Source: Promethearchaeota archaeon Loki_b31 (lineage in GTDB: Archaea > Asgardarchaeota > Lokiarchaeia > Sigyniarchaeales > SOKP01). Taken from it: 13,221 nt of DNA. The stretch is from contig NJBI01000078.1 of NCBI GenBank assembly GCA_005222975.1, forward strand, positions 1 through 13,221, in the 5' to 3' direction. Shown in pieces: positions 1 to 13,221 of this stretch; the stretch's first letter is position 1; every line of letters begins with the position of its first letter. A program made the translations under genes and the position numbers. Below the pieces are notes generated by a model. It saw nothing but the letters and a program-made list of their open reading frames with translations, was not told the origin of the DNA and ran no database searches.

Positions 1-31
1 TGAATTTTCATAGGTATCCCAAACTTAATAA

Positions 32-1135
32 TTAATATTTTGAAGTGGTTTTTGATTTGATTTTATATTTTGGAATCTCTTTTATTTTTCTTAACTCTTT
101 TTCAAAATCTCGCTTTTCTCTAAGAAATCTCTCTTTATCACTTTTTAATTTTTCTCTTTCTCTTCTAATTGCCTGCTTTTCATTCTGCATCATCGATTTT
201 TCTTTTTCCAATTGTTTAGACTCATTTTTTAATTTTTTAAGCTTATTCTCTAAATTACGAATTTTATGTTCTAAAGAATAATAAGTATCTTCTGCTTTAG
301 GAACTTTTCTATCTAATTCCTTTAATCTTGCTTCTTGCCCTTTTTTCTTTCTTTCTAATTCTCTTATATTACGATCTACTTTCTCTTTATACTTGTTCAA
401 TCCTTCTTTTTTTTTTTCAACTTCACGAGATTGAAGATTTAACTCTTTTTTTTTATATCGAACTTTTTCTTTTTCATCTTTTAATTTTCTTTTCTCATCC
501 TCGATTCGATTTTTTTCATCTATTTTTTCTCTTCTCAAACTATTGATTTCTTTGGTTAGATTATCTCTTTCTCTCGTTAAATTCTTAATTTCATTTCTCA
601 AATCCATTAATGCGTTTTCCAACTTTTCATTAGTTCTTTCTAACGCATTTTCTCTCCGTTCCATACCGGGTATTTTAGTTTTAATTTCCTTAATTCTATC
701 TTTTGCTCTTTCTTTTTCTTTTTCTAAATATTTTTTCTCATTCTTTATCTCATCTTTTAATCCATGTAGTTTCTCTTGATATCGTTCTAAGTTAGCATTT
801 TTTTGATCTAATTCCCTTTCTCTTAAAGCTATATTATCTCTACTTTGCTTTATTTCATTTCTCATAGCATCTAATTCATTTTTTAATTTTTCACGTTTAT
901 TTTGTAGGTCTCTCACTTGAAGTTCTTTTTCTTTTCTTTTCTTTTCTAAATCTTCAATATTTTCGTGGTATCCTTCAATTTTTTTAATAACCTGTTCCCA
1001 TTCATTTTTCTCTTTGTTCAATTTAGCTGTTTCTTCCTTAATTTTTTTGAGTAATTTCGCATCTGGAATAACATCTAATTGCTCTTCAGGTGTTTTTTCT
1101 CGAATTTGGTATTTAGGAATGGGTTTATCATTCAT
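32..1135 (-). CDS. Long coiled-coil protein (367 aa), function unknown
   Basis: ATG-started ORF, almost entirely E/K/R/L/N heptad-like helix. Prolines only near the termini and at P156/P279. No Walker A motif or hinge, so not an SMC. Confidence 0.85.
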   Translation of the reverse strand: MNDKPIPKYQIREKTPEEQLDVIPDAKLLKKIKEETAKLNKEKNEWEQVIKKIEGYHENIEDLEKKRKEKELQVRDLQNKREKLKNELDAMRNEIKQSRDNIALRERELDQKNANLERYQEKLHGLKDEIKNEKKYLEKEKERAKDRIKEIKTKIPGMERRENALERTNEKLENALMDLRNEIKNLTRERDNLTKEINSLRREKIDEKNRIEDEKRKLKDEKEKVRYKKKELNLQSREVEKKKEGLNKYKEKVDRNIRELERKKKGQEARLKELDRKVPKAEDTYYSLEHKIRNLENKLKKLKNESKQLEKEKSMMQNEKQAIRREREKLKSDKERFLREKRDFEKELRKIKEIPKYKIKSKTTSKY

Positions 1136-1317
1136 GGTATTTGTAAAAACTCATATAAATTTTTAAGTATAATATAGTATTTTTCACTCTAAAGTGTTTG
1201 CAATTTACTTTTATTACTTTAAAGCCAATTTTTGTTGTCGATTTATATATTATCATTTCCATTATTTCTTAAAAAGAAACATAAAATTTATAATTCTAAA
1301 CTAATGGTGTGTATTTA

Positions 1318-1707
1318 ATGGATTTTGAGGAAGATTTTAACGAGGAATTTGACGAGGAATTTGACGAAGACCTAGATGAAGAATTAGATGAGCCTTCTAC
1401 AAAGTCCCCCACGGAAGATTTTACAGTTAAAACTCCAGATCAAAAAATCTCACATGAAGGAAAAAAGATTTCAGTGTATTTTCTATCAACCATAGGACCT
1501 GGTGAGAAAAAACAAAAATTACTGGTCTATACTGGAAATAAAGTAGGAGATATTAAAGAAACTGTAGCAAATTTGTTTGCTTTAGATCCTGCTGACTTTC
1601 ATTTATCTTCGGGGGGAGTCACTATGGATGAAATTTCGATGTTAAGTGATTATAATTTGTCTGATGGAGATGATATATTACTAATTCCAGCTAGCGTTGC
1701 TGGTTGA
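1318..1707 (+). CDS. Ubiquitin-like protein (Ubl-1) with acidic N-terminal tail, C-terminus ...LIPASVAG-stop
   Basis: The last ~82 aa follow the ubiquitin pattern (VGDIKETV~IENVKAKI; FHLSSGGVTMDE~QRLIFAGKQLED; LSDYNL~LSDYNI). ATG at 1318 is preferred over the GTG at 1309 because GGTG (1306-1309) lies 8 nt upstream and the paralogue starts similarly (MDF vs MSF). Confidence 0.85.
   Translation: MDFEEDFNEEFDEEFDEDLDEELDEPSTKSPTEDFTVKTPDQKISHEGKKISVYFLSTIGPGEKKQKLLVYTGNKVGDIKETVANLFALDPADFHLSSGGVTMDEISMLSDYNLSDGDDILLIPASVAG
1324..1392 (+). repeat. In-frame 12-bp tandem repeat (~6 degenerate copies) encoding (F/L)-D/E/N-E-E/D units
   Basis: TTTGAGGAAGAT TTTAACGAGGAA TTTGACGAGGAA TTTGACGAAGAC CTAGATGAAGAA TTAGATGAG. 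Exact core (ACGAGGAATTTG)x2 plus ACGA at 1340-1367. Confidence 0.9.
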
Positions 1708-1759
1708 ATAGATTGGAAAGATATAGACAATTTAATAATATTATTTTCTTTTTTCACTT

Positions 1760-2554
1760 CTATTTTTTTTTTTTTCTTGATGGAATTAGCGCAATTTCGT
1801 TATCATCGTCTATAGCATAATCTTCTATTAGAAGAGTTTCTTTCAATAAAATCCCCCCAGATGATAATAGAAAATCTTCTAGATTATAATCAAATAATAT
1901 TCCAACTTTTTCTTTAATGATACTTACTAATTCAGACGGATCAATAATGAGAATCTTAGTTTTCTCACCTGATTCGACTAATGACCTTACATAAACACGT
2001 ATTTTCTCATCCATCCCAATAGTATGCAATGGTGGGTTGTATATCACCTGTTCCTCAGTTAGGCTCTTGGTTTCTAACATATCTTCAATTAACTGTTTTC
2101 TCTCACTATCATCAAAATACAACATCTCTCTGATAAAAAAGATTTTATCCATTTTTGATAATCCTAAAAGATCAATTTTAGCTATTTGCTCTTTACTAAA
2201 AATAGTAAAAATATAATCATCCATCGATTCTATTTCTTCAAATGATTCTATTGCATTCGCATAATTATCTATTAAAGGCATTGCATCAAAGTAATCCTCG
2301 AGTAGAGCACTAGTTTTTTTCTTAACTGATTTTTGTTTAGGAAAAGGTTTTTTACCTTTCATCTTTACAATATGGGTACTACTAGATTGAACAACGGTGT
2401 ATATCGTGCCTGTGGATAGCACAGCAACACTACCAATTGTTAGAAAGATATATACTGGAACATTTTCTACTTGTAAAAATATAAGAATCAAATAGGTAAA
2501 TACAATCCCTACATAAAGAGTTATGAGACTTAATATTCTATAATTCTTTCTCAT
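1760..2554 (-). CDS. Membrane protein with two N-terminal TM helices and a C-terminal Ubl domain lacking the terminal Gly
   Basis: Two hydrophobic segments (ILSLITLYVGIVFTYLILIFL; VYIFLTIGSVAVLSTGTIYTVV). The last 81 aa align with Ubl-1/Ubl-2 (GEKTK, IKE, FLLSSGG, DY, LIP) and end SRKKKK. ATG at 2554 preferred; the ORF track starts at TTG 2599. Confidence 0.8.
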   Translation of the reverse strand: MRKNYRILSLITLYVGIVFTYLILIFLQVENVPVYIFLTIGSVAVLSTGTIYTVVQSSSTHIVKMKGKKPFPKQKSVKKKTSALLEDYFDAMPLIDNYANAIESFEEIESMDDYIFTIFSKEQIAKIDLLGLSKMDKIFFIREMLYFDDSERKQLIEDMLETKSLTEEQVIYNPPLHTIGMDEKIRVYVRSLVESGEKTKILIIDPSELVSIIKEKVGILFDYNLEDFLLSSGGILLKETLLIEDYAIDDDNEIALIPSRKKKK

Positions 2555-2638
2555 GATTTTTATGATAAATTCTATTCTAATTTCTAATATATAATTCAAA
2601 ATATAAATCCCATTGGAATAAGTTTGAAATTTTGATGC

Positions 2639-3310
2639 TCACCCACCTAAAATTGATGCTCTTATCTTATAGTATTTCTCTGTATTGATTTTAAAAAAAA
2701 CCTTTTTATTTTCTTTTTCGATTGTTATTAAATCCAGATTTTTTAATATTTCAAGATACTTTTTTATAGTATTGTAATTCTTTTTTAATCCAGTTGCGAT
2801 TTCAGTACTCTTTAATGTTTTATTTTCTTTAATCATAAAATCAATTATTTCTTGAACGATATCTCTTTTTAAATAAAAAAATAACATATCATATTCTGGA
2901 TTTGAATCATATTCAAAGATTATTTTTTGATTATCAATTTTTTTTGATCTAGTAAATCTAAATTTTTCTAAACAGGATAAATGCCATAGTGCTTGATTGC
3001 TTCCAATGTTAATGGCTCTCATTATTTCATTAATATTTGATGGATTCTTCTTTATAAAATTATAAATTTCATTTCTTATGGGATGTTCAATAATATTGTT
3101 TTTCATTAATTTTGTTCCAGGAATTAAAATTCTTTTTTTAATTAGATTTTTAATTATAAGTTCAATACTATTTTTATTTAGATAAGGGTTAGATTTTACT
3201 CTATTATTGATAAATACAACAATATCTTCTATTGAAAAGAAAGGTTTCTTTTTTAAATATTCCCTTATTAAATCACAAACAATAGATTGAAGGTTATCCG
3301 GAGAGCTCAT
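2639..3310 (-). CDS. Winged helix-turn-helix transcriptional regulator with tandem ArsR-like wHTH domains
   Basis: RNEIYNFIKKNP..INEIMRAI..G..QALWHLSCLEK and a second HTH, STEIATGLKKNYNTIKKYLEILKNLDLI. This matches the archaeal double-HTH regulator pattern. Confidence 0.8.
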   Translation of the reverse strand: MSSPDNLQSIVCDLIREYLKKKPFFSIEDIVVFINNRVKSNPYLNKNSIELIIKNLIKKRILIPGTKLMKNNIIEHPIRNEIYNFIKKNPSNINEIMRAINIGSNQALWHLSCLEKFRFTRSKKIDNQKIIFEYDSNPEYDMLFFYLKRDIVQEIIDFMIKENKTLKSTEIATGLKKNYNTIKKYLEILKNLDLITIEKENKKVFFKINTEKYYKIRASILGG

Positions 3311-3503
3311 AAGCTAAAATTTTTATTATGTTAAATGGTCTGAATTTATTAATCAAATCTTCTTTCTAAACAGTATTCTCACCAATATATATTAATAAAT
3401 CGTCATTCAATTTATAAATATATGTTCTTAGGCTCTACTTAATATATTATTTCGTTCACTTTTTAAAATTAATAAAACTTCAAAATCATTCCAATGCGTT
3501 TTA

Positions 3504-3530
3504 TAATAAATAGATTTTATCTATTTATTA
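3504..3530. promoter_or_regulatory. Perfect 12-bp inverted repeat (TAATAAATAGAT-ttt-ATCTATTTATTA), candidate operator
   Basis: Lies in the divergent intergenic region between the wHTH gene and the Ubl-2/E1 operon, and overlaps a TATA-like TTTATAA at 3500-3506. The palindrome is observed; the function is inferred. Confidence 0.5.
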
Positions 3531-3575
3531 AATTCTAAAAAAAAATAAATCTAAAAAATAGATAAAGTGATTTGA

Positions 3576-3908
3576 ATGAGTTTTGACAACGATTTTGATG
3601 AGGAATTAGAACCAGTTAAATCTAAAACCCCATCAAGTAAAACACCCTCAACAGGCAGAAAGTTGACTTTATATTTCATGTCAACTATTGGTCCTGGTGA
3701 AAAGAAGGAAAAATTAACTGTGAATGACGGTAATAATGTAAGTGACATTAAACAAACATTAGGAAATTTATATGGACTTGATCCTGAAGAATTTCACCTC
3801 TCATCCGGAGGAGTTACCATGGATGAGGGTAATCAATTAAAAGATTATAATGTTAGTGATGGCGACGACATTCTCTTGATCCCAGCGAGTACTGCTGGAT
3901 ACTTTTAA
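3576..3908 (+). CDS. Ubiquitin-like protein precursor (Ubl-2), C-terminus ...LIPASTAG-YF
   Basis: 58/82 residues identical to the Ubl-1 domain by manual alignment. Immediately upstream of E1-E2-JAMM-RING. Confidence 0.9.
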   Translation: MSFDNDFDEELEPVKSKTPSSKTPSTGRKLTLYFMSTIGPGEKKEKLTVNDGNNVSDIKQTLGNLYGLDPEEFHLSSGGVTMDEGNQLKDYNVSDGDDILLIPASTAGYF

Positions 3909-3934
3909 ATATTTCTTTTCATAAAGTTTAATAT

Positions 3935-3968
3935 AAGGGCATTAAGCCCTTCAATTTTTTTATTTTTT
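3935..3968 (+). terminator. Putative hairpin plus T-tract terminator/attenuator between Ubl-2 and E1
   Basis: AAGGGC-attaa-GCCCTT (3935-3951), followed by CAA and T7-A-T6. The GC stem stands out in AT-rich DNA. Confidence 0.45.
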
Positions 3969-3983
3969 CAATTAATATTAATA

Positions 3984-5216
3984 GTGATAATATTGGATAA
4001 GGAATCAGATTTTTTTGCTAAAGGAATGACAGCGGAAGAGAGAAATTTATATGATCGCCAATTTCGTTTGGAAGGATGGTCTCAGAATTTGGTAAAAGAC
4101 TCAAGAGTGTTAATTGTAGGCATTGGTGGGTTAGGTTGCGAAATTGCTAAAAACCTAGCCATGTTAGGTGTAGGCCATTTAGATCTTGTTGATTTAGACA
4201 TTATTGAGCATTCCAATTTGAATCGCCAAATTCTTTTTGTTGATGCAAAGTTAGGAGAACCAAAAGCTATTGTAGCGGCTAATAAGCTAATCAAGATTAA
4301 CCCTAATATTACTGTAAAAGGGTATCATACATCCTTAGAAAGGCTAGATCCTGCTTTATATCGTGCGGCAGATGTTGTTATTGGGGGTCTTGATTCAATG
4401 AATGCCCGTTTGAACCTAAATGCGCAATGTATACGATTTAGAAAACCACTAGTGGATGGAGGTGTAAATGGTTATCATGGACATATGTATTCAATCTTTC
4501 CGTATCGGAATGCTTGTTACGAATGTAATCCATTACCAGTAGCTGAAAATGATGAAATGGCAGCCTGTACAGTGGTAGGTATCCCCCGAAAACGGATTCA
4601 TTGTGTTTTTAAAGGAGATATGGCCTTTAAAGAAAAGTTTGATAGAGATCCGTACCCAAAAAATATAAAGGATATTGAATTTATCCAAAAAGGTGCAAAT
4701 AAATTAGTGAATAAGCATAATTTCCTACCTGAATATACTTCTGATGATATCGTTAAAATTATTGATCGTCATGATCCTGGGATCATTACAATTAATGCTG
4801 TTATTTCTGCTTTAGAATCACATGAAGTTGTGAAAATCTTGCATTGGAAAAGAGGTCATAAGAGTTTAGGACGACCCATTTCAAGTTATGTTATATTTAA
4901 TGGAATGACAATGAAACTGTATCATATTGAAAAGAAGAGAAATCCGGAATGTTCTCAATGTGGTAAAAACGTAAGGCGTGTTGCTATAAAAATGAAAGCT
5001 CAATCACCCTGTATGAACATAATTAGAACATTGCAAAAAAATGGATTTGAATTGGAACCTGAATTTGAACCAGTTGTTACCTTACAGGATTTCAATGACA
5101 TCATGGTTTTAGATTTAGAGCAAAATGTAATCGAAAATGGATTAAGAAACTACGAATTTCTGACCGTTGTGGGGTTAAAGGGTGGAGAAATTTATGTTAC
5201 TTTAAAATTAAAATAA
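3984..5216 (+). CDS. E1 ubiquitin-like activating enzyme (ThiF/MoeB adenylation domain, catalytic-Cys region, probable C-terminal ubiquitin-fold domain)
   Basis: LYDRQ, GIGGLG, DLDIIEHSNLNRQ, GLDS..AR, two CxxC pairs (CYEC, CSQC). CTVVGIPRKRIHC resembles the UBA3 catalytic motif CTIASMPRLPEHC. Start is uncertain (GTG 3984, TTG 3993 or ATG 4026). Confidence 0.92.
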   Translation: MIILDKESDFFAKGMTAEERNLYDRQFRLEGWSQNLVKDSRVLIVGIGGLGCEIAKNLAMLGVGHLDLVDLDIIEHSNLNRQILFVDAKLGEPKAIVAANKLIKINPNITVKGYHTSLERLDPALYRAADVVIGGLDSMNARLNLNAQCIRFRKPLVDGGVNGYHGHMYSIFPYRNACYECNPLPVAENDEMAACTVVGIPRKRIHCVFKGDMAFKEKFDRDPYPKNIKDIEFIQKGANKLVNKHNFLPEYTSDDIVKIIDRHDPGIITINAVISALESHEVVKILHWKRGHKSLGRPISSYVIFNGMTMKLYHIEKKRNPECSQCGKNVRRVAIKMKAQSPCMNIIRTLQKNGFELEPEFEPVVTLQDFNDIMVLDLEQNVIENGLRNYEFLTVVGLKGGEIYVTLKLK

Positions 5217-5293
5217 AAATTAAATCAAAAATGATTTTTGAGAAAAATCTATTAAAAAAAAAAGTATAAAAGAAAATAAAAAGGGTTGAGAAA

Positions 5294-5821
5294 ATGAGTA
5301 TAAGAACCAGTCGTGTTTCCCGAGATTTTGCGGGATTAAAAAAATTGCTTAAAGAAGGTACTATTATCCAATTAAAACCATTTAATCCGAAAAAAAAGAG
5401 TATTGATCATTTAGCAATCACAATTAAAGGTCCTAAAGGTACAGTTTATGCAGGGGGATTGTTTAAGTTGGAAATGAGATTCCCGGCTCAGTATCCTAAG
5501 CGACCTCCTTTCGTAAGATTGCATACTCCAATTTGGCATCCAAATTTTTGGCCAAAACCAAGTGAATACAAAGGACAGAGAAATATTTGTTTAGCTTTAG
5601 TAGATCCTTCTTTAACGGGTAAAAAAGGGGGATGGAGTCCTTCAAAAACAGCAGTTACTGTTGTTCAAGCAATAATTGCAATGTTAAACACCCGTGGTAA
5701 ATATGTTAATCCCACTGATGTTTTTAATAAGAAAGCTGCAATAGAAATGATGAAAGATCAGAAATTTTTTGAGAAAAAGGTCAAAAATTTAGTAAAGAAA
5801 TACGCAAAAGATAAATGGTGA
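5294..5821 (+). CDS. E2 ubiquitin-conjugating (UBC-fold) enzyme
   Basis: GP.GT.Y.GG.F.L...FP..YP..PP.V....IWHPN, catalytic ICL (C99), WSP. Confidence 0.95.
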   Translation: MSIRTSRVSRDFAGLKKLLKEGTIIQLKPFNPKKKSIDHLAITIKGPKGTVYAGGLFKLEMRFPAQYPKRPPFVRLHTPIWHPNFWPKPSEYKGQRNICLALVDPSLTGKKGGWSPSKTAVTVVQAIIAMLNTRGKYVNPTDVFNKKAAIEMMKDQKFFEKKVKNLVKKYAKDKW

Positions 5822-5828
5822 ATTTATA

Positions 5829-6620
5829 ATGAATATTGATGATAATGCACTCAGAGAGGCAATAAAACAGAAAATTAAGGAAAAAATTAAAAAGGAATTA
5901 CTTGAAGAAGTATATACCGAATTACAACTAGAAGAATTGCAGGAAGAATTAACCACTGAACTTATTAAAGCAAGGCCTTTAGAACATTCAAAAGAAATTA
6001 AAGCCAAACTTGAGCCAATTCCTATGGAACCAATAAAAACTATAGCTAAAAATGATAAAGTTGAAGTATCTTTGACTATAAAATCTATCCTTAAGATCGC
6101 TAGCCATTCATTAAAATATGCACATTCTAAAATGCGAAGAGAGAATTGGGTTGAAGTAATAGGGTTGCTTGCAGGAAAATACGATAATAGAAAAGGAATT
6201 CTTCATGTTGAAGATGCGTATCCGATGGGGCATGGTACAGCAGTATATGCTGAAATTAAAGATTATAAAAATTATGTTAGAGCCTACAAAGAGATTAAAA
6301 AAGATAATCTGGTTATTTGTGGATGGTATCATTCTCATCCTTCTTATGGATGTTTTATGTCTCGAGAAGACTTAGGAACTCAAGCAAGATATCAAAAATT
6401 ATGGGATAAAGCTATTGCGCTTGTTATTGATCCATATCAGATTAACGGGAAATCTTTAGGTTTTGAAATTTATCGTGCTAATTTTAAAACAAAAAAATGG
6501 TTTTCAATTCCATTTGATATTAAGGGGTATTTAGATGTAAGAATGTTACCAGAAATTTTAGAATTTATGAATCCTATTATTGAAGGAAAACCAGTTTATT
6601 TAGAATATGATGAAGAATAA
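5829..6620 (+). CDS. JAMM/MPN+ metalloprotease (Rpn11/CSN5-like) with N-terminal coiled-coil extension
   Basis: EVIGLLAG and GWYHSHPSYGCFMSREDLGTQ give the full E...HxH-x7-S-x2-D motif; also ALVIDP. GGTG lies 8 nt upstream. Confidence 0.93.
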   Translation: MNIDDNALREAIKQKIKEKIKKELLEEVYTELQLEELQEELTTELIKARPLEHSKEIKAKLEPIPMEPIKTIAKNDKVEVSLTIKSILKIASHSLKYAHSKMRRENWVEVIGLLAGKYDNRKGILHVEDAYPMGHGTAVYAEIKDYKNYVRAYKEIKKDNLVICGWYHSHPSYGCFMSREDLGTQARYQKLWDKAIALVIDPYQINGKSLGFEIYRANFKTKKWFSIPFDIKGYLDVRMLPEILEFMNPIIEGKPVYLEYDEE

Positions 6621-6649
6621 TGAATAGTTTTTAAGGTGAAAATTAAACT

Positions 6650-7765
6650 ATGGTAAAAAAAAAAGTGTTAAGGATAATAGCTATTATTTTTCCAATAATT
6701 GGCTTAATTCATGGTTTAATCTCATATTCTTCAACTATTTTTTTTACATGGTTATTAATCGGATTATGGATAATATTTACAATGAAGATTTTTGAAAATA
6801 TCAAGCGCCACCGTGAGTTTAATTCACCACACAATACTGCATTTTTTGTGATTCTCCCATTATTTATCGGGATTTTTTACTCCATATGGGGTTCTTTTAC
6901 TGGTCTATTGGGAGAGAGTCTTATCGGTGGCGTATATTTTAGTCTTTGGAGTCTAATTTTTGCTTTTCCATTTATAATGTATGGTTTATATTCTTTATAT
7001 CGTTGTTTTAAGAAATATAATGTAATCTATTTTGGAAAAAAATCAGTAAAAGCAAGAATGTTGGGATATATTCTATCATTCTCAGTTCTTATTCTTATTA
7101 TTGCCTATTGGATAACTTTTTATAATTTTACTCTATTAGACTTAAATCTCCTATTACTTTTCATAGCTATAGTTTTAATATTAATTGTTTTTGGATTTAC
7201 TAGTACTGGTTCATCAATACCAACATTAACTCGGGATTACATTGCTGAACGTACTAGAAGGATCAATAATTTGACCACACCTTCAACCCAGAGACAAAGA
7301 GTACACACAACACGTACAACTAATACATCTCCATCAACTAGAACAACTACACGTACAACAAGATCTAGAACCCAATCGTCAAGAACAACTCCTACATCAC
7401 ATAGACAAACGGCAAGGACTAGAACAACAAATACTACACGTACTACTCGTGTTAAACCAACTTCAAAAGTTCGTGATCTAAATAAATATAAACCAAGAGC
7501 ATCATATCTTACAGTAGATGATTTTAAATGTATCTTTTGTTTTAATTTACCAAAACTTCCTGGAGACAGAGGTAGAGGAATAGTTGTATGTCCAAATTGC
7601 AGATATCCCGCACATGCTGATGAATTTAAAGATTGGATGCGAACTTCAAACCTCTGCTCACGTTGTAGTGCTGTTATACCATCAGGCTTTAGGCGTAATC
7701 CTAGAATTGTATCTGTAAAAAATTATTTAATTATCTATAGACATTTTTTGAAGAAGAAAAGATAG
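6650..7765 (+). CDS. Multi-pass membrane protein (~6 TM) with Thr/Arg-rich linker and C-terminal RING-like zinc finger; putative E3 ligase
   Basis: Six hydrophobic segments in aa ~6-184. C294xxC297...C314xxC317-x4-H322-x2-E325-x3-W329...C336xxC339. Last gene of the Ubl-E1-E2-JAMM run, with GGTGA upstream. Confidence 0.75.
   Translation: MVKKKVLRIIAIIFPIIGLIHGLISYSSTIFFTWLLIGLWIIFTMKIFENIKRHREFNSPHNTAFFVILPLFIGIFYSIWGSFTGLLGESLIGGVYFSLWSLIFAFPFIMYGLYSLYRCFKKYNVIYFGKKSVKARMLGYILSFSVLILIIAYWITFYNFTLLDLNLLLLFIAIVLILIVFGFTSTGSSIPTLTRDYIAERTRRINNLTTPSTQRQRVHTTRTTNTSPSTRTTTRTTRSRTQSSRTTPTSHRQTARTRTTNTTRTTRVKPTSKVRDLNKYKPRASYLTVDDFKCIFCFNLPKLPGDRGRGIVVCPNCRYPAHADEFKDWMRTSNLCSRCSAVIPSGFRRNPRIVSVKNYLIIYRHFLKKKR
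7274..7465 (+). repeat. Low-complexity Thr/Arg/Ser coding tract with degenerate repeats
   Basis: ACACGTAC at 7310, 7349 and 7436; ACTAGAACAAC at 7337 and 7418. Encodes repeated TRTT. Confidence 0.7.
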
Positions 7766-7779
7766 ACAAATAAAAATTA

Positions 7780-8736
7780 TTACGACATTCTTATAATTTT
7801 TCTCAACTCACCCACACTAGTTTTTAACTCAGAAAAAACGTTATGTGGATGAATAGATTCAAAGCTTTCAATTTTAAAAGTAATTTTGAAATCATTTTCT
7901 AAATTGGGAAAATCTCTTAAAATAAAGTTTTTTGCCATTTCTCTTACTACATCTTCAGAAAACAGCGGTTTTAAATGAGCAATTCTGACAAGTTTGGCTT
8001 CTTCAGGTCTTTTCAGAACAGACTGTATTTTTCCACTCATCGATTCTTCAATAATATCAATGATATCTAACACATCTATCCTATTGTTATTTAAATCTTT
8101 TATTTGAACTATTATAGTCCCAATTGAACGTTGATTATGAGAGCTAAAAGGTAGGATATTAAGAAGAGTTTTAACCACATCATCAGAAAGGTTAAGATCT
8201 TGCCTATTTTTAATAATTTCCTCAGCATATTCTTGGCTCATTTCCTTAGCACAGGGACAAACCGTCATACCAACAGCACTGGCTCCAATGTAATAACTAA
8301 AATCGACTTTTTCTTGTTCTTTCTTCTTTGCCTTTACAAATGAGCTAATTTCATATGCTTTCTGGATGGTTCTCTGTTGTTCGTCTTTACCTTGTACAAT
8401 TATTTTTCCTTCTAATTTTACATGAATCTTTTCGGTATACGGGTGCCGTTCTAACAATTTTCTAGCAATCCTATCTCCAACTAATTCAACCGATGGAGTG
8501 GGTTTAAAAATTACTTCATTTATTATTTCTTCAATAGTTTCTGAGGTTCGCGACATATGTATGCCACGCTGTTGTGCTGGCAAAGAGATTAAGGCAGATA
8601 TTTTTGGGTAAAAAGAAAACCGTTTATTCTCATGAATAATCTCAACTTTCTTTTCTACTCCCACGATCCCAACTTTATCGATTGGAATATCAACTATCGA
8701 ACCAGAGCCTTGTAAATCTTTCTTAAACTGATGAAT
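7780..8736 (-). CDS. mptA: GTP cyclohydrolase MptA (archaeal member of the FolE2/GCYH-IB family)
   Basis: RGIHMSR, GMTVCPCA, HNQRS, LKRPEE, P.F.EDVVR, ESIHPHN. The conserved N-terminal DLQ...IPIDKVGI lies in frame upstream of the tracked GTG at 8664, so the start was extended provisionally to ATT at 8736. Confidence 0.85.
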   Translation of the reverse strand: MHQFKKDLQGSGSIVDIPIDKVGIVGVEKKVEIIHENKRFSFYPKISALISLPAQQRGIHMSRTSETIEEIINEVIFKPTPSVELVGDRIARKLLERHPYTEKIHVKLEGKIIVQGKDEQQRTIQKAYEISSFVKAKKKEQEKVDFSYYIGASAVGMTVCPCAKEMSQEYAEEIIKNRQDLNLSDDVVKTLLNILPFSSHNQRSIGTIIVQIKDLNNNRIDVLDIIDIIEESMSGKIQSVLKRPEEAKLVRIAHLKPLFSEDVVREMAKNFILRDFPNLENDFKITFKIESFESIHPHNVFSELKTSVGELRKIIRMS

Positions 8737-8855
8737 AAATCAACACCAATTTTTTTGCTCGTTATTTATATGATGTACCAATTTTTATAATTTTTATAAT
8801 ATATTTTCTATTATATTATTTCTTGAAATAGGAATAAATAAAAATTGAATTTAAT

Positions 8856-10028
8856 ATGCCTAAAACTGCGATATATAGTAAATATGGGCTAATTGGAGAC
8901 GATTTAGAGCTAAAAAAAAATATTTCAATAGAAGTAGATAAAGACGGAAAGATTATTACAATTTCTTGCGAAAATATTACGAATAATATTGATATCTCGA
9001 GGAAAGGACGAAGTACTTTATTAGTTCCAGGACTAATTAATTCCCATATTCATATTGGCGATAGTTTTGCGAAAGAGGAAGGGTTTAATAAAGATTTAAT
9101 CGATGTTGTCGCCCCTCCAAATGGATTAAAGCATAAATTGTTAAGAACAATCTCAAACGAAATAAAAATTGAAGGGATAAAAAAAGCAGTTTTAGAAATG
9201 CTAGCAAATGGTATAACATTCTTTGTGGACTTCCGAGAAAACGGGTTAAAAGGTGTAGATCTTTTAAAAGAAACTTTAAAAAATTCTCCTATTAATAAAC
9301 TCATTTTAGGAAGGGATAATAATTTAGTTGATGTGGAAACTGTATTTAAAAATGCTGATGGCTTAGGATTTGCTAGTTATAAGCATCTTTCTCCTAAAAA
9401 CAAAGAAAAATTAAGTAGTTTAAAAAAAGAATATTTAAAAAAAATTATAGCGTGCCACGATGCTGAACTCTCGAGAGACGAGCCACTTTTTAACGAAATA
9501 ATAAACGATGATTTAATCGATGTAATTATACATGGTACTCATTATACAAGAGAAGATTTAGAGAGAATAAAGGGTAGAAATATTTCTATAGTTTTATGTC
9601 CTCGATGTAACGGTTATTTTGGAGTTGGATTTCCACCAATAAACGAAATTAATAGTTTAAAAATTCCTATAAGTTTAGGGACTGATAATGTAATGGTAAA
9701 TACGATTGATTTGTTCGAAGAAATGCGTTACCTATATAGAATTTCTCGTGTTTTATCACCTGATAAAAGTAATAATAATCTTTCTTCAAAAGATTTGTTG
9801 AAAATGGTAAGCATTAATGCTGCTAAAAATTTTGGGTTAGAAAAAGAATTTGGGTCAATTTCAGAGGGAAAATTTGCTGATTTTTTTTTGCTAAATTTAT
9901 CTGACCCGAACTATTATTCATATAAGATTGATCACAAAAGTATTTATCCTATTATTGTCCAAAGATCAAAATCTGAAAATATCAGAAAAACATATATTAA
10001 AGGCGAGGTAGTATTTGAAAGGAAATAA
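8856..10028 (+). CDS. Metal-dependent amidohydrolase (SsnA/cytosine-deaminase-like TIM barrel)
   Basis: PGLINSHIHIGD (HxH), HDAE, IIHGT, CPRCN, LGTDN, GSISEGKFAD. Confidence 0.9.
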   Translation: MPKTAIYSKYGLIGDDLELKKNISIEVDKDGKIITISCENITNNIDISRKGRSTLLVPGLINSHIHIGDSFAKEEGFNKDLIDVVAPPNGLKHKLLRTISNEIKIEGIKKAVLEMLANGITFFVDFRENGLKGVDLLKETLKNSPINKLILGRDNNLVDVETVFKNADGLGFASYKHLSPKNKEKLSSLKKEYLKKIIACHDAELSRDEPLFNEIINDDLIDVIIHGTHYTREDLERIKGRNISIVLCPRCNGYFGVGFPPINEINSLKIPISLGTDNVMVNTIDLFEEMRYLYRISRVLSPDKSNNNLSSKDLLKMVSINAAKNFGLEKEFGSISEGKFADFFLLNLSDPNYYSYKIDHKSIYPIIVQRSKSENIRKTYIKGEVVFERK

Positions 10029-10683
10029 GCATCCTTACGTAATTTTGAGCGCGGCTATGACAATTGACGGTAAAATCGCTTCTAAGATAGGAGACCCAGA
10101 CATTTCTGACGAAGAAGATTGGAAAGCCGTACATAAACTAAGAACAGAGGTAGATGCAATTATGGTTGGTAAAGGGACGATTTTAAAAGATAATCCAAAG
10201 CTTCATATTAAATATTACGATCATAACGGATATTTTCGAATTGTGTTAGATAGTACTCTTTCAATACCAATTGATTCAAATGTGATAAAATATAAACCAG
10301 AAGTTTACCCCACGATCATATGTATAACTGAAAATGTTCCTTTGGAGAAAATAAAAGATTTCGAATTAAAAAACATTAAGATTATAAAATCAGGTAAAGG
10401 GAGCAGAGTTGATGTGGTTAAACTAATGCCAATTTTATATCAAAATGGTATAAAAAAGATTCTACTAGAGGGAGGTGGCAATTTGAATTGGAGTTTTATT
10501 AAAGATAATTTAGTAGACGAAATAAGGTTAACAATTGCCCCTTGGATCGTTGGCGGTAAAGATGCTATAACCCTAGTAGAGGGAGCGGGTTTCTCAAAAA
10601 TGCTTGAAAGCCCTAAATTTATCTTATCTGATGTGGATCATAGAAATAATTACGTAATTCTAAAATATAAAAAAGGAAAATGA
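10015..10683 (+). CDS. arfC: 2,5-diamino-6-(ribosylamino)-4(3H)-pyrimidinone 5'-phosphate reductase (stand-alone RibD_C)
   Basis: AAMTIDGKIA, VHKLR...DAIMVG.GT...DNP.L, LLEGGGNLNWS, VDEI..TIAP.IVGG. No deaminase domain. TTG start with GAGGT upstream; overlaps the preceding gene. Confidence 0.88.
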   Translation: MKGNKHPYVILSAAMTIDGKIASKIGDPDISDEEDWKAVHKLRTEVDAIMVGKGTILKDNPKLHIKYYDHNGYFRIVLDSTLSIPIDSNVIKYKPEVYPTIICITENVPLEKIKDFELKNIKIIKSGKGSRVDVVKLMPILYQNGIKKILLEGGGNLNWSFIKDNLVDEIRLTIAPWIVGGKDAITLVEGAGFSKMLESPKFILSDVDHRNNYVILKYKKGK

Positions 10684-11792
10684 CGGAAGATATAAAAAAA
10701 GTCAAAGAATTAAAATCTTTATCAATCAGAAAGTTAAAAGAAAAAGTTAATGAAATAAAAAATGAGTTAGATAAAGAAGAGCAAAAAATTATAACATATT
10801 CTAAGAATTTCACCCTTTCCCTTTCTAATTATTGTCAAAATCAATGCGGATATTGTTTTTATAATCATAGGATCGCTAAAGAAACAGGGGAAAAAAATGT
10901 TGTGTTAATTGAAGATGAAAAAATCGATTTGATAACTCAAAATGCGGCGCAATATGGATGCAAGGAAGCTTTATTAATGTCAGGTGAATTTCCAGATAGT
11001 TTTCAAATAGTTCAGAAAGAGTTAGAAAAAAGGAATTTTGGCGATTTCTTACAATTTGTTAAGAATTTAAGCAAAAATCTATTAAACATGAATTTTCTAC
11101 CTCATACCAACATTGGCTTGCTTACATTTGAGCAATTAAAAAGTTTAAAGGATTATAACGCTAGTATGGGTTTAATGTTAGAGAGTACTTGCAAAAGTCT
11201 TTTTAAAAGCGGTGGAGTTCATGTAAACTCGCCTGGTAAAATTCCCGAAAACCGAATCGAACACATTGAAAATGCGGGAAAGTTAAAAATTCCCTTCACT
11301 ACTGGTTTATTATTAGGAATTGGAGAGAGTTTTGAAGATAGGATAAAAGATCTGTTTTTAATTAAGGAAATCAATCTTCAATATGGTCATATACAAGAGG
11401 TTATCATACAAAACTTTATAGAGAAAAAGGGTATACGATATAATCCAAGAACCCCCATAACTATTGAAGAAACCCTCAAAACTGCTGGAATCGCAAAATT
11501 AATATTTGAAAATGAGATTGCTATTCAAGTACCTCCCAATTTAATTCAAAATTACGAGACAGAAGCCATAGAGATGGGTATTGATGATTTTGGAGGAATT
11601 TCCCCTTTTACCTTGGATTATATCAACCCGGAGCATACTTGGCCTAAAATAGATTATTTAAAAAAGATTTGTGGAAAAAAAGGGTATAAACTGGAAATGA
11701 GATTACCAATTTATAATAAATTTATCAATAAAAAGGGATTCTGCCCCAAAAATATTAAAAAAACGATAGATAATATTAATCAAAATGTCTGA
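10680..11792 (+). CDS. cofG: FO synthase subunit 1 (7,8-didemethyl-8-hydroxy-5-deazariboflavin synthase), radical SAM
   Basis: ITYSKN, CQNQCGYC, LPHTN.G, NASMGLMLE, SPGK.P..R, IPFTTGLL.GIGE, GHIQEVIIQNF, QVPPNL, D.GGISP.T.D.INPE..WP. ATGA overlap with arfC. Confidence 0.95.
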   Translation: MTEDIKKVKELKSLSIRKLKEKVNEIKNELDKEEQKIITYSKNFTLSLSNYCQNQCGYCFYNHRIAKETGEKNVVLIEDEKIDLITQNAAQYGCKEALLMSGEFPDSFQIVQKELEKRNFGDFLQFVKNLSKNLLNMNFLPHTNIGLLTFEQLKSLKDYNASMGLMLESTCKSLFKSGGVHVNSPGKIPENRIEHIENAGKLKIPFTTGLLLGIGESFEDRIKDLFLIKEINLQYGHIQEVIIQNFIEKKGIRYNPRTPITIEETLKTAGIAKLIFENEIAIQVPPNLIQNYETEAIEMGIDDFGGISPFTLDYINPEHTWPKIDYLKKICGKKGYKLEMRLPIYNKFINKKGFCPKNIKKTIDNINQNV

Positions 11793-12909
11793 AATATATA
11801 ATTACATCAAACCAGATATTAAAAAAATTCTCAAAAAAGCGGAAGAATCGGAAGAAATCAGTCGAGAAGAAGCTCTTAAACTACTAAAAGTTACAGGGAA
11901 AGAATTTTTTGCTTTACAACAAATAGCTGATCAGATTTGTTTTGAGAAGAAAAATAATCTTGTAACATTTATTATAAATCGAAATATAAATTTTACAAAT
12001 ATTTGCTATCAGAATTGTAAATTTTGCTCTTTTAGTGTTTCAAATAAGAATAAAGAAAGTTTTTTACAAACTCATGAAGAAATTAGAAAAAAAGTTTTGG
12101 ACGCTAAAACTGCTGGTTGTACAGAGGTTTGCATCCAGGGTGGAATAAATCCCGAACTAGATTTTGACTATTACCTAAATATTTTGAAGAATGTAAAAGA
12201 TGTCGATGCTAACATGCATACGCACGCTTTTTCACCTCAAGAAGTATTTTATATGTCAAAATTATATGGAAATTCTATTGAAAATACATTAAAAGAATTA
12301 AAGAAAGCGGGATTAGATTCAATGCCCGGCACTGCCGCTGAAATTTTAGTTGATGATGTTAGGAAAATCATATGCCCCAATAAATTATCAACATCTCAAT
12401 GGATTAATGTGATAAGTACAGCTCATAAATTAAGTATCCCTACTACGTCAACTATGATGTACGGACATATCGAAGATTTACGAGACAGAATCAAACACCT
12501 TGAGGTGTTAAGGGAGATTCAAAAAGAGAACTCAGGTTTTACTGAATTTGTCGCTTTACCCTTTGTTAAGGAAAAACCAATGCTATCGACCCTAACAGAT
12601 TTCCCTTTAAAACCAAGTTTTGGAATGGCAGATTTGAAACTCTTCTGCGTAGCAAGAATATTTTTTAACAATTACATTGATAATATTCAATGTTCATGGG
12701 TTAAATTGGGTCCAAAATTTGCTCAAGTATCTCTTAATTATGGAGTAAACGATTTTTCTGGGACACTAATGGAAGAAAATATTTCAAAAAGTGCAGGTGC
12801 GGAATTTGGAGAGTACTTATCTCCAGAGGAAATAATTGAAATTATTAAAGCTGCAGGAAAACGCCCAGCACAGAGAGATACAATATATAAAATCTTAAAA
12901 TATTACTAA
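11785..12909 (+). CDS. cofH: FO synthase subunit 2 (5-amino-6-(D-ribitylamino)uracil-L-tyrosine 4-hydroxyphenyl transferase), radical SAM
   Basis: NRNINFTNIC...C.FC, TEVCIQGG, HAFSP.E, SMPGTAAEIL.D.VR, STMMYGH, GFTEFV.LPF, NIQ.SWVKLG, GTLMEENISKSAGA. Adjacent to cofG. Confidence 0.95.
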   Translation: MSEIYNYIKPDIKKILKKAEESEEISREEALKLLKVTGKEFFALQQIADQICFEKKNNLVTFIINRNINFTNICYQNCKFCSFSVSNKNKESFLQTHEEIRKKVLDAKTAGCTEVCIQGGINPELDFDYYLNILKNVKDVDANMHTHAFSPQEVFYMSKLYGNSIENTLKELKKAGLDSMPGTAAEILVDDVRKIICPNKLSTSQWINVISTAHKLSIPTTSTMMYGHIEDLRDRIKHLEVLREIQKENSGFTEFVALPFVKEKPMLSTLTDFPLKPSFGMADLKLFCVARIFFNNYIDNIQCSWVKLGPKFAQVSLNYGVNDFSGTLMEENISKSAGAEFGEYLSPEEIIEIIKAAGKRPAQRDTIYKILKYY

Positions 12910-13220
12910 ATTCTGTGATCTTGTAAAAGACTTAAGACGTAACGTTGTGTAATTAAATCTGAACTTACTTTTCCTAAAACCTTTCCGTCCTTAACAACTG
13001 GCATAGCAGAAATTTGATATTGTTCTAATTCACGTACAATGTCTAGCATAGTATAATCTGGAGAGGCTATAATAACGTCCTTAGTCATAATTCTATCAAG
13101 TTTAACATCACAACTATTTGAGGAAACTGCTGCTGTTACATCCCAATCGGTTGCAACTCCTATAAGTTTACCTTCAGAGAGAACGGCAACTATACCACTA
13201 CTTTCATCTATCATTAACTT
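12906..13220 (-). CDS. CBS-domain pair protein, probably 5'-partial
   Basis: GKLIGVATDWD, IMTKDVI, ISAMPVV.DGKVLG.VS..D. The frame stays open to the window edge. Its stop codon overlaps the cofH stop. Confidence 0.85.
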   Translation of the reverse strand, partial: KLMIDESSGIVAVLSEGKLIGVATDWDVTAAVSSNSCDVKLDRIMTKDVIIASPDYTMLDIVRELEQYQISAMPVVKDGKVLGKVSSDLITQRYVLSLLQDHRI

Positions 13221-13221
13221 T

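Follow-up and report, generated by a model that had tools for sequence, protein, structure and literature searches.

A probable membrane-resident RING-type ligase encoded in the ubiquitin-like operon of an Asgard archaeon

The subject of this report is a gene, here called TM-RING, in a 13,221-nucleotide (nt) stretch of DNA from Promethearchaeota archaeon Loki_b31 (GCA_005222975.1, contig NJBI01000078.1, positions 1 to 13,221). This stretch is referred to as the window, and coordinates are window positions unless a locus label is given. TM-RING (6650..7765, plus strand) is an intact open reading frame (ORF) of 371 codons plus stop, whose product joins six predicted transmembrane (TM) helices to a C-terminal RING-variant zinc finger. 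It is preceded, on the same strand, by genes for a ubiquitin-like protein (Ubl; Ubl2, 3576-3908, Pfam ubiquitin 9.5e-7), a ThiF-type activating enzyme (E1, 3984-5216, Pfam ThiF 7.8e-57), a UQ_con-type conjugating enzyme (E2, 5294-5821, Pfam UQ_con 6e-26) and a JAB/MPN peptidase (5829-6620, Pfam JAB 3.3e-15), giving the co-directional order Ubl2-E1-E2-JAB-TM-RING. A RING gene thus clusters with Ubl, E1, E2 and JAB genes, as in the archaeal operon-type ubiquitylation systems. As far as sequence can tell, the enzyme that does the tagging in this eukaryote-like system is probably membrane-bound.

The window is AT-rich (G+C ∼ 30%) and belongs to a 3.5-Mb assembly that is 92% complete; relatives of this genome carry the labels Promethearchaeota or Lokiarchaeota in their source records. 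The spacer between the JAB stop codon (6618-6620) and the start of TM-RING measures 29 nt and contains the Shine-Dalgarno-like sequence GGTGA (6635..6639, plus strand; read from the sequence), 10 nt ahead of the ATG. TM-RING is presumably translated from a polycistronic transcript, of which it is the last gene, since a convergent GTP cyclohydrolase gene lies only 14 nt from its 3′ end. Just upstream of the cluster lie genes for another Ubl, for a Ubl with a membrane anchor and for a winged-helix regulator. The finger of TM-RING was the sole match when all six frames of the window were searched for RING-like motifs, and the genome has one UQ_con E2 match, the operon's own.

The finger (7529..7666, plus strand) has the pattern C-x2-C-x16-C-x2-C-x4-H-x2-E-x3-W-x6-C-x2-C. 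It comprises C294 (codon 7529-7531), C297 (7538-7540), C314 (7589-7591), C317 (7598-7600), H322 (7613-7615), E325 (7622-7624), W329 (7634-7636), C336 (7655-7657) and C339 (7664-7666). All nine residues are invariant in alignments A1 and A2, the latter being the profile of the C-terminal domain. Searched alone against Pfam, the TM-RING protein is below detection for zf-RING_2 (PF13639) and Prok-RING_1 (PF14446). The matches that the single sequence did give in Pfam, NCBIfam and the PDB (Glycoprotein_G, over the linker; Zn_ribbon_15; the regulatory chain of aspartate transcarbamoylase) were dismissed as noise.

The family profiles gave a clear signal. A2 matched 117 proteins among 1.84 billion representatives, most of them with the same length and architecture. 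The weakest significant matches are soluble archaeal-type proteins whose sixth ligand is His, Cys, Asp or Glu; several of these exceed the Pfam cut-offs for zf-RING_2 and Prok-RING_1. The profile of A4, a wide-family alignment with 34 distant full-length members, retrieved the solved RING of human RNF24 (E 1.3e-6) and, more weakly, many further RINGs. Twelve of the 34 distant members match zf-RING_2 at E ≤ 0.01 (best E 9.9e-6) and eleven match Prok-RING_1 at that threshold (best E 8.4e-5), in both cases under the Pfam cut-off. An AlphaFold2 model of the finger domain (predicted local distance difference test, pLDDT, 71.5) contains two short strands and a helix (323-332) directly after H322. 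When this model was compared with 48,161 chains by the exhaustive structural search VIA, the 50 best matches were RING or U-box domains without exception (Z 6.0-3.8), led by Ring1b with Z 6.0 and a root mean square deviation (rmsd) of 3.6 Å over 68 residues. The Foldseek list is likewise dominated by RING/U-box domains, but at E ≥ 0.18. Profile and fold searches together show that the finger is homologous to RING domains, with a RING/U-box fold predicted at moderate confidence because the first Cys knuckle is poorly modelled. The first-pass annotation had called it RING-like from the letters, and the choice of RING over PHD, LIM or zinc ribbon is borne out.

The spacing of the ligands could also be read differently. 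C-x2-C...C-x2-C-x4-H-x2-X...C-x2-C is the C4HC3 pattern of PHD fingers, so that the Cys domain might be a PHD-type or other reader finger which binds a peptide or a mark instead of an E2; two PHD chains do occur, weakly, in the PDB profile search (2l43_A, E 0.67; 7vvu_V, E 4.1). However, a helix right after the histidine is typical of RINGs, no PHD is found among the 50 best structural matches, and no family member matches Pfam PHD at E ≤ 0.01, compared with the 12 that match zf-RING_2. The same genome also encodes four other RING proteins (loci L082-L085; C83:41155-41286, C70:2919-3053, C25:5063-5197 and C88:25062-25193), which share the spacing C-x2-C-x4-H-x2-[C/H]-x3-W with the membrane RING; all four match zf-RING_2, three above the cut-off. 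We consider a reader finger highly improbable. The four paralogues have no predicted membrane domain, and their fingers are C4HC3, C4H2C2 or RING-H2-like; one of them is a protein of 501 residues with a long coiled-coil-like N-terminal region and another looks TPR-like.

The N-terminal half of TM-RING is hydrophobic. Kyte-Doolittle analysis delimits segments at residues 6-24, 30-48, 65-83, 91-109, 137-155 and 165-183, and AlphaFold2 models residues 1-189 (6650..7216, plus strand), with 46 aligned relatives, as a domain of six helices (4-25, 28-56, 64-80, 99-121, 135-156 and 165-184) at a mean pLDDT of 93.2 and a predicted template modelling score (pTM) of 0.86. The first-pass estimate of about six TM helices agrees with both. 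Short hairpins are modelled at 90-98 on the outside and at 125-134 on the cytoplasmic side. The best-conserved motif (residues 49-66; 6794..6847, plus strand; alignments A1, A3 and A4) runs from the cytoplasmic end of TM2 through the loop between TM2 and TM3 into the first part of TM3. Its wide-family consensus at the TM2-TM3 junction, E..YYR..NAP.AS..F, is also kept in a RING-less twin of the membrane domain that is described below. According to the model and the count of Lys and Arg residues (K+R), a basic cytoplasmic TM4-TM5 loop with a β-hairpin follows at residues 122-134 (7013..7051, plus strand); with its flanks it holds seven K/R, and the family consensus after TM4 is RY....Y......RK. 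A proline in TM4 is a further conserved feature. The best-kept motifs all lie on the cytoplasmic face of the model.

Between membrane domain and finger lie a conserved juxtamembrane segment (residues ∼ 190-208) and a linker that extends to residue ∼ 280 (together 7217..7489, plus strand; delimited by composition and family comparison). The 90 positions from ∼ 190 to 280 comprise 30 Thr, 18 Arg, 9 Ser, 2 Lys and 3 Asp/Glu; Thr, Arg and Ser make up 63%, and Lys and acidic residues are scarce. The S/T/R bias is present in all 15 members checked, in which the linker is 90-168 residues long. No tandem repeat of note was found in the underlying nucleotides, and an origin of the linker from a DNA repeat was rejected. 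A disordered linker ahead of the finger had been claimed at the outset, and the low-complexity segment of ∼ 90 residues is indeed presumably disordered. Twenty K+R lie in the N-terminus, the 2-3 and 4-5 loops and the tail, versus none in the remaining loops; relatives in which six segments are called have 16-21 inside versus 0-2 outside. By the positive-inside rule these counts would place both termini, and hence the finger, in the cytoplasm, where the RING of such a ligase had been expected to lie. Both free Ubls of the window (1309-1707 and 3576-3908) carry strongly acidic N-terminal extensions, with runs of D/E interspersed with F. Their charge is opposite to that of the Arg-rich linker, and an electrostatic contact between tether and Ubl is conceivable.

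No Pfam or NCBIfam family matched the membrane domain, the ESM Atlas offered no usable look-alike of residues 1-205, Foldseek found nothing (best E 1.5), and the A4 profile had no match to PDB sequences in the TM region. The VIA search, among 48,161 chains, produced a mixture of unrelated helical proteins, headed by a soluble SNARE complex (Z 7.8). The membrane domain has no convincing relative among solved structures; structure prediction and Foldseek, which had been suggested for the two parts separately, give a RING/U-box fold for the finger and, for the TM part, a six-helix model that Foldseek matched to nothing.

The VIA list does contain human HRD1 (9uav_B; rank 15, Z 7.1, rmsd 3.7 Å, 112 residues) and yeast Hrd1 (9z0e_C; rank 18, Z 7.0, rmsd 5.2 Å, 149 residues). 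These ranks, together with a shared order in which several TM segments precede a cytoplasmic RING, would be expected if TM-RING were a true Hrd1-type homologue, that is, a retrotranslocation channel with a RING and a direct ancestor of the eukaryotic ligases (E3s) of endoplasmic-reticulum-associated degradation (ERAD). However, both scores are tied with those of unrelated soluble helical proteins and lie under the VIA noise guide for helical bundles, and the registers are inconsistent (model 1-123 versus residues 142-266 of 9uav_B; model 1-189 versus 10-210 of 9z0e_C). We therefore do not accept the two rows as homology. Hrd1 has eight helices, compared with the six modelled here, and a search of the 92%-complete genome for a Der1 partner (PF04511), made without a positive control, gave no match. 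Together with the Foldseek and profile results above, this leaves true Hrd1 homology unsupported and, in our judgement, very unlikely. The first-pass annotation had pointed to an ERAD-type architecture and had cautioned that no sequence homology to Hrd1, gp78 or TRC8 was seen in the TM region. The caution holds, and of the resemblance the architecture stands (six TM helices, linker, cytoplasmic RING); the likeness is architectural only, because the Hrd1 matches at Z about 7 are within the noise.

TM-RING is widespread. Full-length matches come from over 355 protein clusters, and a relative is present in 135 species genomes. The order Ubl2-E1-E2-JAB-TM-RING is found in 80 of 80 related loci. 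In a phylum-wide search, full-length members turned up within the window's class in families f1, f3, f5 and f7, and outside it in no fewer than five families (f13, f15, f16, f17, f28); one cluster member among the distant homologues is labelled Hodarchaeales in NCBI. In ten loci from these distant lineages the flanking genes differ and, in one group, Ubl-E1 has moved downstream. TM-RING nonetheless directly follows E2-JAB wherever the distant locus covers that side, one truncated locus showing JAB only. In family f13 (L103, L104 and L108) the order is E2-JAB-TM-RING-twin, followed by a Lys/Pro/Ser-rich ORF on the opposite strand and then by Ubl-E1. In the window the cluster is flanked by a gene for a Lys/Glu-rich coiled-coil protein of 367 residues (32-1135, minus strand), which keeps its place beside the cluster in most related loci and also in some distant ones (L102, L107).

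The persistence of this linkage also bears on what the membrane domain does. A well-conserved six-TM domain whose fold has no known relative could belong to a transporter or channel that is regulated through a zinc-binding tail and takes no part in Ubl conjugation, and Foldseek gave rows to ZnT1 and other transporters, although very weak ones (E about 5). The association with E2 and JAB survives rearrangement across Asgard classes, however; the tail is homologous to RING fingers, and no transporter family was matched. We find such a function hardly credible.

We propose instead that TM-RING is the membrane-resident RING-type E3 of the operon's Ubl cascade, or an E3-like adaptor of that cascade. 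From sequence and models together we judge this reading reasonably probable. The E2-JAB-TM-RING linkage, which persists in distant families after rearrangement, supports a role in the cascade. A membrane-embedded E3 had been inferred at first pass; in its favour are the architecture and the fact that TM-RING is the only E3 candidate in the cluster, and it is weakened by the details of the finger.

Cys or His occupies seven of the eight cross-brace ligand positions and not all eight. Ligand 6 is Glu (E325 here) in 176 of 177 membrane-bearing members, and a Trp stands four residues past it in all 177. When the four RING paralogues of the same genome are aligned column for column with TM-RING, the E325 column holds Cys in three and His in one. 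Conservation of the Glu at this level looks like the upkeep of a metal or structural site and not like decay. The equivalents of E2-contact positions are also kept: C-I-F-C is found in 158 of the 177 members, and the Trp in every one. In the Caldiarchaeum E3 (srfp), I30 and W58 are needed for activity, and mutation of the linchpin arginine (R69A) impaired the enzyme (PMC5654768). A Lys at +2 after the last Cys is seen in distant members only, and a fixed Arg lies between Cys7 and Cys8.

A number of observations weigh against the proposed ligase. With Glu as ligand 6, the first site may hold zinc weakly or not at all, and the first Cys knuckle is modelled at a pLDDT below 50. Throughout the family C339 is followed by Ser, Asn or Asp, and there is no Arg/Lys linchpin; Glu and the missing Arg linchpin weaken the reading as a simple canonical RING. 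The fold-match scores of the finger are modest (Z at most 6), and RING-like fingers of IFT-A and GATOR2 subunits are among the matches. The four other RING proteins of the genome are more canonical and could serve the E2. Finally, synteny among close relatives says little by itself, because unrelated flanking genes are conserved too.

Several of these points would fit a finger that is a non-catalytic RING-like module, in a protein that acts as a scaffold or anchor for E2, JAB or Ubl, or is itself the main regulated target, while soluble RINGs such as the four zf-RING_2-type paralogues ligate. The RING-like fingers of IFT-A and GATOR2 have structural or assembly roles, and those of IFT-A are not known to act as ligases. 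The C-terminal zinc finger of IFT144/WDR19 is the best or second-best PDB sequence match of the family profiles (E 0.029 with A2, 0.0014 with A4; 8bda_I, 8bbf_A, 8fgw_C), over the second half of the finger (window 7589-7666) with the common core CP.C.[FY]PA...C..C. Zinc fingers of IFT121, IFT122 and GATOR2 are also seen among weak matches of relatives and among Foldseek matches of the model. On the other hand, TM-RING is the sole RING of the operon, at the place taken by the RING E3 in published archaeal operons (PMC5654768; 10.1101/2023.07.25.550441), the Ile/Phe and Trp that would contact E2 are invariant, and the Glu has the appearance of a maintained site. We regard a purely non-catalytic role as unlikely, while giving it more weight than any alternative discussed above.

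If TM-RING is a membrane-resident ligase, its cytoplasmic RING, held on a flexible and strongly basic tether of ∼ 90 residues, would bind the operon's single Ubl-charged E2 and promote the transfer of Ubl onto lysine residues of proteins located at the membrane. The tether would let the RING sweep the membrane surface and may engage the acidic N-terminal tails of the Ubls. The membrane domain, its best-kept motifs facing the cytoplasm, might select or dock targets or partner subunits, and the neighbouring JAB peptidase would mature the Ubl and reverse the mark.

The RING-less twin bears on the oligomeric state of TM-RING. In families f13, f15 and f16 the TM-RING gene is followed by a gene for a hydrophobic, six-TM-like protein of ∼ 195 residues (L103:10390-10977, plus strand; L099:8471-9055, minus strand; equivalents in L100, L101, L104, L105 and L108). 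Its profile aligns with that of the TM-RING membrane domain over 178 columns (hhalign; 98.1% probability, E 8.7e-14). The twin occurs in 54 genomes, all within f13, f15, f16 or f17, and neither in the 160 genomes of the window's class nor in the window's own genome; the profile was built from the other classes, and a very divergent copy could escape it. That the two are paired in other classes suggests a dimer as the working form of the membrane domain, and in a class that has no twin a homodimer is plausible, as a guess. This guess reasonably fits the predicted amphipathic helix that follows the RING (residues 356-368; 7715..7753, plus strand; finger-domain model), which may be a dimerisation or membrane-contact helix. 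Many VIA matches cover it, among them Ring1b/Bmi1, TRIM, RNF8, Rad18 and CHIP, RING or U-box domains that dimerise via flanking helices. The working unit is likely an oligomer. In its furthest form, the proposal would be that the main Ubl cascade of the Loki and Heimdall groups is built on a dimeric polytopic ligase, of a fold unseen in solved structures, which is a homodimer here and a heterodimer with the twin elsewhere and which marks or extracts membrane proteins; we offer this as speculation and think it doubtful as a whole.

Membrane-embedded RING ligases (ERAD, peroxisomal and MARCH-type) are generally treated as eukaryotic. The operon-encoded E3 candidate described here is a conserved polytopic membrane protein, which well over a hundred Asgard species possess; the archaeal systems of ubiquitin type that have been characterised to date use small RING ligases, which were purified for assays in solution. 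In the literature, of which our coverage is incomplete, no account of an operon-encoded polytopic RING from Asgard archaea came to light. If TM-RING is active, the membrane would have been a main site of Ubl tagging before eukaryotes, which matters for the question of how ERAD and ubiquitin-dependent sorting arose. Should the dimeric form of the proposal be true, the ligase would be either a prokaryotic precursor of the RING-ligase machines of ERAD and of peroxisomes or a separate invention of the same kind, and ubiquitin signalling would have begun at the membrane. The proposal is testable, since E1, E2, Ubl, JAB and the RING domain are small and encoded by a single operon, and since Loki-class strains are available in culture. 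A clean question in RING chemistry is also posed by the Glu that is fixed where a zinc ligand would stand.

The closest functionally characterised relatives of TM-RING are the operon RING E3s of Caldiarchaeum and of the Helarchaeial system. The former, srfp, is the small RING E3 of the ubiquitin operon of Caldiarchaeum subterraneum and was purified and assayed in solution (PMC5654768); the Helarchaeial RING E3 is likewise small and operon-encoded, and was purified and assayed in solution (10.1101/2023.07.25.550441). As in both systems, TM-RING is encoded in a Ub/Ubl-E1-E2 (+JAB) cluster and has a cross-brace pattern of ligands. With srfp it also shares a hydrophobic residue directly behind the first Cys and a Trp in the helix (I30 and W58 in srfp). 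Unlike either E3, for which no membrane region is mentioned, it has a six-helix domain and a basic linker of ∼ 90 residues, and it differs from srfp in having Glu for Cys/His at ligand 6 and Ser/Asn for the linchpin R69. The A2 profile search gave no indication of srfp among its 117 unnamed matches.

In architecture TM-RING is closest to Hrd1, gp78, TRC8 and Pex2/10/12; the likeness of the membrane parts is architectural. Hrd1/synoviolin, gp78/AMFR and TRC8/RNF139 have, like TM-RING, an N-terminal multi-pass region followed by a cytoplasmic RING, and both of their termini are cytoplasmic, as is predicted for TM-RING. They differ from it in that TM-RING has six helices and a C4-H-E-C2 finger instead of a RING-H2.

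Pex2, Pex10 and Pex12 are paralogues that assemble with one another as subunits, and some have degenerate fingers. These proteins too have membrane helices followed by a C-terminal RING (PDB 7T92), and the RING of 7t92_C matches the finger at Z 4.0. By analogy, this set of paralogues resembles TM-RING with its RING-less twin in the other Asgard classes. No match between the membrane domains was seen, however, and the twin is absent from the window's genome and class. The fingers of IFT-A, as in IFT144/WDR19, end soluble coat-like proteins of β-propeller and solenoid; the match to these is weak, and covers the second half of the finger only.

Prok-RING_1 and zf-RING_2 are the Pfam families nearest to the finger in that they are matched by distant full-length members and, above the curated cut-offs, by soluble relatives; the window's own protein stays under detection, and its six-helix domain lies outside Pfam families. 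Bacterial Prok-RING_1 proteins of ubiquitin-like operons are reported to possess TM helices as well, so that a RING tethered to the membrane is not without precedent in prokaryotes.

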